DNA of 17,644 bases from positions 1-17,644 of IMG/VR virus record IMGVR_UViG_2737471835_000010, one strand, 5' to 3'. The DNA comes from a virus. Taxonomy: Duplodnaviria; Heunggongvirae; Uroviricota; Caudoviricetes. The stretch's first letter is position 1, and each line of letters begins with the position of its first letter. A model generated the notes under the pieces. That model worked only from the letters and a program-made list of their open reading frames with translations, searched no databases and was not told where the DNA came from. The position numbers were made by a program, and so were the translations under genes. Positions 4,129 through 6,737 of the stretch are shown here, piece by piece.

Positions 4129-4655
4129 TTGCGTAACTCCGATAACTCGTTGAAGCGTTCTATAAACATCCCATAGGCATGGCCTGGCGACAGTGGAATA
4201 ACTTTGAACATCTCTGTTGCCGGGATACCTTCCAGTACAGGCCAGAAAGAGCCATCATCAAGCCCGAGATCGCGGCGTTCGGTTGCCAGCATGATGAGAT
4301 CGGCATATTTCACAGGCGTGCTCATAACCGTGGGTAACCCGTATTTCTCACGGATTACGGCGTCTATTTTTTCTTCCATCCGTTTATAGTCAGGAAGAAG
4401 GCGTTTCAGCGGCGCGGGGATGTCCTGGCAATACGCTTCTGTTGCATCATGCATTAACGCTTCAAAAGCAAATTCCTGCGGCACCAGCTGGCTGCAAAGC
4501 ACCGCATGTTGGGCGACACTGTAGAAGTGTGAAAGATGACCGGCAAAGCGACAGATATTTGAAAGGGAAACCGCGATATCGTTAATCACGATGTCGTCTT
4601 TATTTATCCTGTCATAATAAAAATGCTTCCCGGAAAAAGTTTTAATAAATGACAT
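4119..4655 (-). CDS. HD-domain phosphohydrolase (YfdR-like)
   Basis: His...His-Asp signature (SVAQHAV ... LMHDATEAY) typical of the HD metal-dependent phosphohydrolase superfamily. The ORF track start at 4685 is a GTG; I prefer ATG at 4655 with GGAG 6 nt upstream, giving 178 aa, the length of KplE1 YfdR. Confidence 0.8.
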   Translation of the reverse strand: MSFIKTFSGKHFYYDRINKDDIVINDIAVSLSNICRFAGHLSHFYSVAQHAVLCSQLVPQEFAFEALMHDATEAYCQDIPAPLKRLLPDYKRMEEKIDAVIREKYGLPTVMSTPVKYADLIMLATERRDLGLDDGSFWPVLEGIPATEMFKVIPLSPGHAYGMFIERFNELSELRKCA

Positions 4656-5672: not shown

Positions 5673-6045
5673 TTAATGACCTGCTGCGCGAAGTTTTCCG
5701 TCAGGTTCACCGGCAAGAGTCAGTAATTGTCCCTGGTCTTCCTGCAGAATAGTCAGGCGACCACCGCGATTGACATACATCGGCGTTTCGGTGGTGTCTT
5801 CTTCAGAAATTTTCCCGCGGTTAGTCGGGCGAACATATGAGAGTTTGTGTTTGATTTTCACACGGTTCTCATCAAACGGTTCGATTTCCAGGTTGAGCGA
5901 GACCTTACCTTTGGTTTTCGTGTTCATCACACCGGAAGCGACTTCACTGAGAACAGCGCCGATTTTGGTTTCAAATACGCCGCCGTCCAGCTCCCCGATA
6001 AATGCCTGCACATCAGTACTGCGTTCGCTAGCCATTTTGCTGCTC
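5673..6045 (-). CDS. Hypothetical early-left protein (YfdP-like)
   Basis: The ORF track extends to 6266, but the only start with a ribosome-binding site is ATG at 6045 (GAGGAG 7 nt upstream), giving MASERSTDVQAF... (124 aa). The upstream extension overlaps a highly structured non-coding region. Confidence 0.6.
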
Positions 6046-6083
6046 CTCATCATATCGACCCTGCAAGGTCGGTTGGTTTCTCC

Positions 6084-6172
6084 ACAAAACAGAGAAGAAC
6101 ACCTGCGGTGACTGCCGCCCGGATGGATTGGGTTATGAGCCCGTCGTCCGGTGATGCTCTTCTCTGTTTTGT
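6084..6172. repeat. 15-bp perfect inverted repeat (ACAAAACAGAGAAGA ... TCTTCTCTGTTTTGT) flanking a 59-bp GC-rich spacer
   Basis: Read directly from the sequence: arms at 6084-6098 and 6158-6172. It would form a long hairpin in the 5' leader of the YfdP-like gene, immediately downstream (minus strand) of the terminator at 6173-6218. Confidence 0.6.
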
Positions 6173-6235
6173 AAAAAGAGCGGTACCAGCCGGAAGCAAG
6201 GGTACAAACTGGTACCGCCAAAGCAGTGGCTGTTG
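6173..6235 (-). ncRNA. Candidate small RNA 3' end / intrinsic terminator in the early-left leader (possibly DicF-like)
   Basis: On the minus strand a 10-bp perfect stem (GCGGTACCAG / CTGGTACCGC, 6180-6218) is followed by UCUUUUU. The segment UUUGGCGGUACCAGUUUGUACCC resembles my recollection of the E. coli DicF sRNA. This is unverified memory; extent and identity are uncertain. Confidence 0.3.
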
Positions 6236-6643
6236 TGGTGGGGTTGTCACTCAGGCGTATGGTCAACCTGACAATCCGGTGTCCTCAACGGGGAAAGAGT
6301 AACCCCGCCATACTTACCGCCGCGCCATTTCGCGGATTACCACAACGCTGAGAGCACTTAGCCAGTTACGGCACCACACTTTGTCGCGGCTCCATAAATG
6401 CCCTCATCGTTGCACCCTGGTCTCTTCCCAGGCGTCAAACCGAATCGCCACGCTGGTTAGGCGTCTTATCAGCATCATCATTGACTTGCACATTCCGGCT
6501 ACCTGGTTTGTTTGCCCGAGCAAGGAGTGGATTGTCCCCTTTAACGTCCCCAGACCGCTAACGACGCATGTGCCATACGCCGTGTTACAACCAAATTTTG
6601 TTAGTACCTTGTTTGTTTGTCTGGAAAGAAAGATAAAATGAAG

Positions 6644-6682
6644 TTGCGCATTATGCAAGTGTTTTTGTTGCGAGATATGCAA
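6644..6682. promoter_or_regulatory. Putative OL operators: two 15-bp sites TTGCGCATTATGCAA and TTGCGAGATATGCAA
   Basis: Two copies of a TTGCG-N5-ATGCAA dyad-symmetric motif lie 9 bp apart just downstream of the cI terminator. A third copy (TTGCGCGTTAAGCAA) lies in the cI-cro intergenic region. Confidence 0.45.
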
Positions 6683-6692
6683 TTTAAAGGGT

Positions 6693-6717
6693 AATGAAAA
6701 GCCACCTTTGGGTGGCT
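6693..6717 (-). terminator. Rho-independent terminator downstream of the cI-like repressor
   Basis: Minus-strand hairpin AGCCACC-CAAA-GGTGGCT followed by TTTTCATT, 20 nt after the cI stop. Confidence 0.65.
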
Positions 6718-6737
6718 AATTGATGAGGAGGTAAGGG

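Follow-up and report, generated by a model that had tools for sequence, protein, structure and literature searches.

A conserved long hairpin behind a DicF-related small RNA in the early-left leader of lambdoid prophages

Introduction

What does a long, perfect inverted repeat do at the head of a prophage operon? The question is raised by a stretch of tailed-phage DNA of 17,644 nucleotides (nt), IMG/VR record IMGVR_UViG_2737471835_000010, which was analysed over its whole length and is called the window below. Two arms able to form a long hairpin stand there shortly before yfdP, the first protein-coding gene of an early-left operon. They lie on the leftward early transcript, from pL, of a prophage that is lambdoid and of the mEp460, cdtI, SfV or ST64B type. 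An earlier examination of the letters alone (the sequence-only reading) had noticed the repeat and offered three explanations for it, namely an RNase III processing site, a translational regulator of the downstream gene or a DNA-level protein-binding site. Lambdoid prophages are among the most studied systems of gene control, yet this leader element is without an Rfam family.

We report here that the hairpin is real, conserved and unannotated. Of the three explanations RNase III processing is the best-supported, by analogy with a stem in the Qin prophage of Escherichia coli K-12. Part of the setting was already known, since the neighbouring small RNA has been published and the Qin precedent is old. 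The surprising part is a copy of the anticodon arm of initiator tRNA at the tip of the hairpin, and the reuse of the domain that bears it at the heads of other phage operons.

Results

A long hairpin in the early-left RNA

A repeat search of the window placed two arms of 25 nt, 84% complementary, at 6084-6108 and 6148-6172, with a spacer of 39 nt. Their outermost 15 nt, ACAAAACAGAGAAGA and TCTTCTCTGTTTTGT (coordinates in Table 1), are perfectly complementary; the sequence-only reading had given these arms exactly, and their coordinates were re-derived from the minus-strand read. With loops of up to 100 nt allowed, these 15 base pairs (bp) are the longest perfect inverted repeat in the window. 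Among 300 shuffled windows of unchanged dinucleotide composition one reached this length, and 0.0016 such repeats per window are expected analytically, which bears out the earlier judgement that such a repeat is unlikely by chance.

Read from the minus strand, in the sense of yfdP, the RNA of 6077-6177 has a minimum free energy of -51.0 kcal/mol (z score -8.25; 0 of 200 shuffles equally stable), and its dominant structure accounts for 34% of the ensemble. The fold is unchanged within a context of 231 nt (z -6.15), over which the leader as a whole is highly structured. Helix 1 consists of 25 continuous pairs, G-U pairs counted: the five U of the preceding terminator pair with GGAGA, the 15-bp core follows and then come five pairs, GCAUC/GGUGU. 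An extension of the stem by CACC/GGTG, which had been suggested, is not in this register and falls away. Helix 1 closes a three-way junction from which two arms, P2 and P3, project. A covariance-model match of 117 bits spans 6077-6177. The plus strand folds to -45.6 kcal/mol, with the 15-bp core and a few more pairs only.

The position of the element is as had been described, between an intrinsic terminator and the ribosome-binding site of yfdP. UUUUU (6177-6173) follows the terminator hairpin and the inverted repeat begins at the very next base; at its other end the hairpin stops 30 nt 5' of the Shine-Dalgarno (SD) sequence of yfdP, with which it does not pair. The upstream structure had been taken for a leader terminator. 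A terminator it is, and it is also the 3' end of a small RNA related to DicF, the homologue of sRNA-17. Two features had been missed: the stem takes in the terminator U-tract, and its apical hairpin is the anticodon stem-loop of initiator tRNA.

Conservation and covariation

A search with the YfdP protein yielded 31 loci from a genome collection and 80 from IMG/VR, to which we added the records of Klebsiella phage Kp4866-6, Salmonella phages ST64B and 118970_sal3 and Escherichia phage LLS. These gave an alignment of 37 distinct versions (A1), on which the window's own structure was tested. The conserved apical motif was also sought in IMG/VR, where at least 120 stretches matched and 80 were returned as loci. 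This enlarged the set to 67 distinct sequences from E. coli, Shigella and Salmonella, from Klebsiella phages and from about ten other enterobacterial genera.

In A1 95.7% of cells are paired, as against 44-55% when the partners are slid by one to three columns. Two-sided changes occur at 13 pairs, compared with 6.3 +/- 1.3 in shuffles (0 of 500 reach 13), and the covariation score is 0.179 versus 0.096. Helix 1 alone is 96.5% paired and has seven compensatory pairs, for example A-U in 18 versions and C-G in 16, or G-C in 24 and C-G in 12. In the 67 distinct sequences 96.0% of cells are paired and compensatory changes are found at 13 of the 39 pairs, the independent events being far fewer than such cell counts suggest. 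These are the compensatory changes in homologous prophages for which the sequence-only reading had proposed to look, and conservation in related prophages, on which it had let the matter partly hang, extends across genera. The element is an RNA structure kept by selection.

What is common to all versions is the length of the helix. In genera other than that of the window it has about 22-26 bp, with one or a few 1x1 mismatches allowed. Two versions from Providencia have an unrelated stem sequence and no three-way junction, yet a helix of about 22-26 bp stands at the same place. In each of the 67 distinct sequences the U-tract pairs that begin helix 1 are either U-A or U-G. A GGAG follows the 3' arm throughout, also in the Providencia stems, which are otherwise unrelated; the one exception is a GGGG singleton. 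The order of parts is likewise conserved: a GGCGG...CCGCC hairpin with a T-run, the long hairpin, GGAG(A/U)A, a small G+C hairpin, and the SD sequence with its ATG. It was seen in E. coli, Shigella, Mangrovibacter, Enterobacter, Atlantibacter, Leclercia, Superficieibacter, Phytobacter, Kosakonia, Scandinavium, Pseudocitrobacter and Providencia.

The element is also common. The leader (661 nt) is present at a coverage of at least 80% in at least 1,028 of 5,426 complete E. coli genomes, and the hairpin occurs in the named phages cdtI, mEp460, SfV, SfII, SfIV and ST64B and in Stx2c phages. No Rfam family was found for it, or for the DicF-like hairpin before it, in the window (gathering score), in 5900-6800 (E <= 10) or in 31 related loci (gathering score). 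The sole Rfam hits of those searches were tRNAs, the K-12 DicF, and isrK and C4 antisense RNA elsewhere in ST64B; the latter two lie in the rightward region of that phage (our locus L119, 5732-5920), for which no counterpart was found in the window. In the literature that we searched no paper describing the hairpin was found, and a search on ST64B, small RNA and RNase III likewise produced nothing.

Evidence for an element that acts as RNA

At several positions the pair is U-G in all 67 sequences, and pair 21/79 alternates among G-C (43 sequences), G-U (22) and A-U (2). The sense strand is the one that folds more stably in 30 of 39 versions. The distance from arm to arm varies widely, with loops of about 22 to about 76 nt, because P3 takes insertions. 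Since module lengths, which run from 77 to 128 nt and fall into all three residues modulo 3, differ by non-multiples of three, there is no conserved reading frame. The suggestion of a DNA-level protein-binding site finds no support in this pattern, G-U pairs being mismatches in DNA, G-U, G-C and A-U pairs interchanging, and the loop varying in length. For the same reasons, to which the sense-strand fold and the frameshifted open reading frames (ORFs) described below may be added, neither a conserved frame nor a cruciform nor a DNA site for a dimeric protein fits well.

It is scarcely credible that the element is a palindrome, cruciform or pair of mobile-element terminal repeats acting at the DNA level, that it belongs to a coding gene or that it arose by chance. 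In favour of such readings, the core reads in DNA as a perfect 15-bp palindrome interrupted by a spacer, two minus-strand ORFs of the window (5673-6266 and 6050-6250) cover the element, and 'hypothetical protein' ORFs are annotated over it in some GenBank/RefSeq records. Against this stand the fixed G-U pairs with the G-U, G-C and A-U exchange and the variable arm spacing, and, for a coding gene, the spread of lengths over all three classes and the finding that the RefSeq ORFs inspected are frameshifted pseudogenes. A mobile element would not explain why there are no flanking direct repeats and why copies are not dispersed in the early-left leaders examined (two weak homologues lie in the ban operon of phage P1); chance is ruled out by the shuffles and by the conservation. 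One of the two ORFs in the window is an in-frame extension of yfdP from a TTG codon. The ORFs that cross the hairpin, called 'hypothetical protein' in many phage/RefSeq records and flagged as frameshifted where RefSeq entries were inspected, look like spurious calls over structured RNA.

Four other identities were tried and rejected. The hairpin is not itself an intrinsic terminator: the stem is followed by GGAGAAACC and by no U-run, its U-rich stretch lies inside the 3' arm, and a terminator scan of the minus strand lists none here. It is not a miniature inverted-repeat element; the flanks are complementary and are not direct repeats, and the early-left long-stem copies examined all follow a DicF-like hairpin and a T-run. 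A leader peptide 3' of the invariant GGAG found no support on inspection: no ORF is conserved there, and start codons at a usable distance are lacking. Nor is it a tRNA or tRNA-like element, with no ARAGORN hit for a tRNA or tmRNA and no match to RF00005 at E <= 10; the anticodon stem-loop alone is shared. A pairing of the apical loop with a start codon (CUCAU with AUGAG) can be drawn in some genera, and others are without it.

The upstream DicF-related small RNA

The small RNA that precedes the hairpin has a published relative. In E. coli K1 strain RS218, sRNA-17 of an mEp460-like prophage was detected on Northern blots and measured as 193 nt by rapid amplification of cDNA ends, with no Rfam homologue reported (PMC7719688). 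The 'full length' primers of that study (PMC7719688, Table S2) put its 3' end at the T-run 6174-6177 of the window and its 5' end at a CGTTGTGG motif, 6350-6343.

Sequence comparison shows that sRNA-17 is related to the DicF precursor, a relationship not noted in PMC7719688. Positions 6240-6346 of the window are 93.5% identical to E. coli K-12 Qin between ydfC and dicB, just 5' of dicF, and an alignment makes 6225-6355 homologous to the region of the Qin 190-nt pre-DicF species; the window has the Qin-like variant of the 5' part of sRNA-17. The terminator stem begins with TTTGGCGGTA-CAGTTT in both the window and DicF. The 5' 20 nt of the 53-nt DicF, its 5' seed, are missing from the window, because of which the Rfam model for DicF (RF00039) finds nothing in the window, at gathering score or at E <= 10, and nothing in 20 related loci; the K-12 dicF scores 76.7 bits.

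When sRNA-17 was replaced by cat (sRNA-17::cat), yfdP rose about 95-fold and yfdR also rose (PMC7719688, Table 1). The rise of yfdP fits its location 3' in the same transcription unit, and it is likely to be a cis effect on the transcription unit that follows.

The apical domain and the initiator tRNA

At the tip of P2 stands GGGCUCAUAACCC, which agrees at every position with the anticodon stem-loop of the E. coli initiator, tRNA-fMet, and whose DNA form, GGGCTCATAACCC, occurs once in the window. With its flanks the match extends to 16 of 17 nt, and the local alignment score is 29, compared with 13.5 +/- 2.1 in shuffles (0 of 2000 as high). The tip has three consecutive G-C pairs below the loop CUCAUAA. 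Three consecutive G-C pairs in the anticodon stem are the hallmark of initiator tRNAs; with the elongator tRNA-Met and with tRNA-Ile2 the loop alone is in common. The tRNA-fMet sequence used was verified at 100% identity in all 5,426 genomes, where it is annotated as tRNA-Met at a median of four places per genome. GGCUCAU is invariant or nearly so in A1; the anticodon-arm motif is absent from Providencia and altered in Scandinavium (L033).

The domain recurs outside early-left leaders. With the A1 covariance model two weaker homologues were detected in phage P1. Both belong to its ban operon, in the interval from tRNA-Thr to tciA, and run in the sense of ban, opposite to the annotated ORFs upl and plp; their tips read GGG(U/G)UCAUAUCCCAAUC. 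The P1 record annotates a 'dicF-like region' further 5' in the same operon. A version of the three-way domain with a short closing helix of 5-6 bp is present in 12 IMG/VR contigs (L127, L140, L246-L255), where it lies about 120 nt 5' of four different holin-type genes in 11 of the 11 contigs with downstream sequence. The one locus with upstream sequence (L140) has a Q antiterminator gene (PF06323) and a terminator 5' of the domain. The short-stem version is usually preceded by a GCCGCCAG...CUGGCGGC hairpin. Because the apical domain recurs with a short stem, the long stem and the apical domain are separable modules. No initiator-tRNA mimic in prophages was found described in the literature searched.

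Leader layout and downstream genes

The features of the locus are collected in Table 1. Some 660 nt without an annotated gene separate the terminator of the repressor gene from yfdP. Operator-like sites of the form TTGCN7GCAA number four in the window, compared with 0.7 expected; three flank the repressor gene, and the fourth, at 11545-11559, is probably a chance match. Since two of the three lie at 6644-6682, pL is probably at about 6640-6690 and fires leftward into the leader. On the far side of yfdP follow yfdQ (DUF2303) and further early-left genes down to the integrase, all on the minus strand.

Table 1. Features of the leader and its surroundings, and of the related phage P1 sequences
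Feature	Position	Strand	Basis
Third operator-like site, between the repressor and cro genes	7451-7465		pattern search
XRE/cI-type repressor gene	6738-7430	-	annotation
Terminator of the repressor gene	6717-6700	-	terminator scan
Two operator-like sites, TTGCN7GCAA	6644-6658, 6668-6682		pattern search
sRNA-17 homologue, also homologous to the 190-nt pre-DicF species of Qin	6174-6350	-	alignments, primer mapping
DicF-like terminator hairpin (GGCGGUACCAG...CUGGUACCGC), 13 bp, 3' end of the sRNA-17 homologue	6219-6179	-	repeat search, fold, alignment, primer mapping
Whole hairpin element: helix 1 (25 bp, 6177-6153 with 6103-6079) closing a three-way junction	6079-6177	-	RNA fold, covariance model, covariation
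U-tract of the preceding intrinsic terminator; forms the lowest pairs of helix 1 with GGAGA (6083-6079) in read-through RNA	6173-6177	-	folds
5' arm (RNA sense) of the perfect 15-bp inverted repeat	6158-6172	-	repeat search, sequence
Arm P2 of the three-way junction, bearing the anticodon-arm-like hairpin; compensatory changes at three pairs	6119-6151	-	fold, covariation
Tip of P2, identical to the tRNA-fMet anticodon stem-loop	6130-6142	-	exact match, single in window
Arm P3 (6118-6105 in RNA sense), short hairpin whose length varies; other genera have up to about 30 nt inserted in it	6105-6118	-	alignments
3' arm (RNA sense) of the perfect 15-bp inverted repeat	6084-6098	-	repeat search, sequence
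GGAGAAA directly 3' of the 3' arm	6077-6083	-	alignments
Small G+C hairpin between element and SD sequence; related loci have a hairpin of different sequence here	6054-6073	-	fold, locus comparison
SD sequence GAGGAG (6048-6043) and ATG (6035-6033) of yfdP	6033-6048	-	sequence
yfdP, first protein-coding gene of the early-left operon; RefSeq 'protein YfdP'	5673-6035	-	annotation
P1 homologues of the element	P1 record 70003-70088, 69725-69828 (L122 3607-3692, 3867-3970)	ban sense	covariance model

Among the 80 loci returned by the motif scan the next gene is yfdP-like in 54. Elsewhere among them the module of terminator, hairpin and GGAG precedes a gene of the RdgC family (PF04381), small ORFs, or a YfbR/YfdR-like 5'-deoxynucleotidase (25.1 bits in Pfam, just below the cut-off of 25.9). 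The element thus goes with the DicF-like terminator and with the operon head of the early-left region, whichever gene lies downstream. Of the proposed translational regulator there remains a possible indirect effect: the hairpin stands off the SD sequence, and the module is not specific to yfdP, since it also precedes rdgC-like, yfdR-like and other first genes.

Several observations concern the rest of the leader. Window 6340-6596 is about 79-84% identical to non-coding DNA of very different phages, lying between tRNA-Ile and ban in P1, P7, D6, RCS47 and SJ46 and just 5' of a tRNA-Arg gene in phiV10, TL-2011b and related phages. The matching stretch is the 'promoter fragment' that bound ArcA in the sRNA-17 study (PMC7719688). 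A motif of the form (U)UGUGGUGAAUGCG occurs at the borders of non-coding modules: at the 5' end of sRNA-17 (window 6343-6350, minus strand), within the 5' arm of the stem that follows dicF in Qin (L002, about 2880-2900), 5' of the DicF-like hairpin in other E. coli prophages (L004, about 4310-4340) and directly 3' of both P1 hairpins (L122, about 3600 and about 3860). It may mark shared processing or recombination junctions. In a Phytobacter prophage a tRNA gene (L022, 2223-2296) lies just 5' of the DicF-like hairpin, and in another phage one (L163, 10718-10788) lies about 220 nt 3' of an isolated copy of the anticodon-arm motif. Phage leaders of this sort act as cassettes of small RNA genes.

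Discussion

A candidate RNase III processing stem

We favour, at about an even chance, the idea that the element is an RNase III processing stem that parts the small RNA from the yfdP messenger RNA (mRNA). It is preferred because a double-stranded RNA helix of 22-26 bp, above the 20 bp or some two turns taken as the mark of such stems, is kept by compensatory change and because an analogous stem follows DicF in Qin. The 3' ends of DicF arise by termination (53 nt) and by RNase III processing of read-through dicBF mRNA (72 nt, that is 53 + 19), as summarized in two later papers that cite Faubladier 1990 (PMC5069750, PMC9438474). The 5' end of the 190-nt DicF species is also made by RNase III (PMC10448788); a paper mapping RNase III sites in E. 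coli names DicF only in passing. When we folded K-12 Qin from dicF to dicB, a long-range stem of 19-21 bp appeared (UGAAUUUUGUGAUGUGGUG / CACUGCAUCACAAAAUUCA). It starts 4 nt past the DicF terminator tail, and 16 nt separate its end from the ATG of dicB; between its arms lies a branched domain of about 110 nt. An O157 prophage has the same stem. Counted as 19 nt past the 53-nt end given in those summaries, the 72-nt end of DicF would fall inside the 5' arm of this stem.

Transcription from pL would cross a non-coding leader of about 450 nt that ends in the sRNA-17 homologue with its own intrinsic terminator, and the element would be transcribed only by polymerases that read through; it forms only on transcripts passing that terminator. 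On such transcripts the 25-bp lower helix would absorb the terminator U-tract and close the three-way junction, and RNase III could then cut helix 1. The cut would give the small RNA an alternative 3' end, extended or trimmed, and would give the yfdP-yfdQ-yfdR mRNA a new 5' end just 5' of the small G+C hairpin and the SD sequence, which might set the stability or the translation of the early-left message. In the E. coli version cleavage would also sever a pairing of the leader with the yfdP start region.

A number of points weigh against this proposal. We infer cleavage at the element, and the specificity of RNase III is not reliably predictable from sequence. The 72-nt end in Qin is placed by its size, as the later papers give it, and not by a mapped site. 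The Qin and window stems share no sequence, so that the analogy is one of position and structure and not of homology: the alignment of the window with Qin diverges directly after the T-run, megablast matches to K-12 stop 5' of the DicF-like hairpin, and the covariance model of the element has no hit in Qin. The apical domain, and not the stem, is the part most conserved in sequence, and 5' of holin genes it has a closing stem of 5-6 bp that RNase III cannot read, so part of the function must differ. Finally, the covariation counts are inflated by relatedness, many rows being near-identical E. coli versions, and the structure tested was derived from the window itself, which gives it an advantage over the slid controls.

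Other functions for the hairpin

The structure and its covariation speak equally strongly for an RNA element that acts without RNase III, by insulating the leader, protecting the 5' part of read-through mRNA, taking away unstructured stretches of the long untranslated leader on which Rho could load, or bridging its flanks so that upstream sequence can mask or unmask the yfdP start. We hold this, the main rival, to be possible, if doubtful. The leader is highly structured overall, and in the 231-nt fold AGCCA...CUGCU, which immediately precedes the DicF-like hairpin, pairs with the AGCAG...UGGCU that surrounds the yfdP AUG, on account of which the long stem could bring an inhibitory segment beside the start site. 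On inspection, however, this start-region pairing was confined to the E. coli version and not conserved in the other genera, and a helix of about 22-26 bp that survives in Providencia the replacement of both its sequence and the apical part points to a reader of double-stranded RNA length. An antitermination RNA of the put or nut kind, modifying RNA polymerase for terminators further down the early-left operon, is very improbable. No N-like gene is evident at the head of that operon, a gap that an RNA mechanism of the HK022 type would fill, and the E. coli version has a boxA-like CGCUCUUUUUACAA at the junction of terminator and hairpin. The element, though, is 3' of the sole obvious leader terminator; the covariance model finds a single copy in the window and none in the pR or late operons, whereas HK022 has both putL and putR; and comparison with the pL/nun region of HK022 showed no similarity (best blastn E 0.75). 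As a boxA or nut site CGCUCUUUUUACAA was rejected, being merely the terminator tail, which is not kept elsewhere (for example CGUCCUUUUU and CGCAAUUUUUU).

It is unlikely that the main function resides in the apical domain as a mimic of the initiator-tRNA anticodon arm, the long stem merely presenting it. The partner might be the 30S peptidyl site with IF3, methionyl-tRNA synthetase (MetRS), a modification enzyme, or a VapC-type or other anticodon nuclease aimed at tRNA-fMet. Such a mimic would be a portable phage RNA module at operon heads, in the early-left operon here, where copies would exist on read-through transcripts only, in late or lysis operons elsewhere and in the ban operon of P1. 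The identity to the tRNA-fMet anticodon stem-loop, the near-invariant GGCUCAU, the tips of the two P1 homologues and the recurrence of the domain 5' of unrelated holin genes, once behind a Q gene, all speak for it. On the other side, the domain is dispensable for whatever the stem does, being absent in Providencia and having a different loop in Scandinavium. The match is limited to three stem pairs and the loop; overall the element is not tRNA-like, with no Rfam tRNA match at E <= 10 and no ARAGORN hit, and the literature searched yielded nothing on such a mimic. Were it true, the mimic might load ribosomes onto antiterminated leaders, tune initiation at the first gene or act as a decoy for a host toxin, with RNase III control supplied in addition by the 25-bp stem where the early-left version is concerned.

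If the hairpin is an RNase III site, DicF-type small RNAs would be coupled to early-left genes across a group of lambdoid phages that lack N, by a mechanism in which polymerase either terminates or reads through and the RNA is cut. The published phenotypes of sRNA-17, including the 'regulation' of yfdP, would then need rereading. The copy of the anticodon stem-loop, conserved across genera and reused near holin genes and in P1, offers a handle on how phage leaders may make contact with the translation-initiation machinery or with tRNA-targeting toxins.

Comparison with known systems

A neighbour already described is sRNA-17 itself, from the same kind of prophage, whose mapped 3' end is the T-run at the base of the hairpin and whose deletion or replacement shifts the levels of yfdP and yfdR (PMC7719688). 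The hairpin is outside the mapped 193-nt RNA and is undescribed in that paper, where yfdP is treated as a regulated target. HK022 putL and putR are, like the present element, structured RNAs in an early leader of a lambdoid phage without N. They differ in preceding the terminators that they suppress and in standing in both early operons, whereas the window element follows a terminator, is single-copy and is dissimilar in sequence.

Two further systems with RNase III cleavage bear comparison with the processing reading. The pL leader of phage lambda contains a large RNase III hairpin just 5' of the ribosome-binding site of N, the first pL gene, and its cleavage alters how that gene is translated. 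There nutL and N mark the 5' part of the arrangement, where here a small RNA and its terminator do, and there is no sequence relation; nor is there a known counterpart here to the N-dependent repression that RNase III relieves. In the metY (tRNA-fMet2) / rimP-nusA-infB operon an RNase III cut frees the small RNA and sets off decay of the downstream mRNA. The order of a non-coding RNA gene, one or more terminators, an RNase III hairpin and an mRNA would be the same in both. That operon is chromosomal and has a real initiator tRNA at its 5' end; here a copy of 13-17 nt of the anticodon arm lies inside the hairpin.

The nearest likeness is to the dicBF stem of Qin. Both stems belong to a lambdoid early-left operon, begin within nucleotides of a DicF or DicF-like terminator, end shortly before the SD sequence of the next gene and close a branched apical domain with a helix of about 20-25 bp, and the RNAs upstream of them are homologous. 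They differ in that neither stems nor apical domains resemble each other in sequence, that dicB follows in Qin and yfdP (or an rdgC-like or yfdR-like gene) here, and that the terminator U-tract is itself paired here. Cleavage is reported for Qin, in the later accounts cited above (PMC5069750, PMC9438474), and would be expected here by analogy. In position and structure the window hairpin is thus the counterpart of a stem with reported RNase III cleavage.

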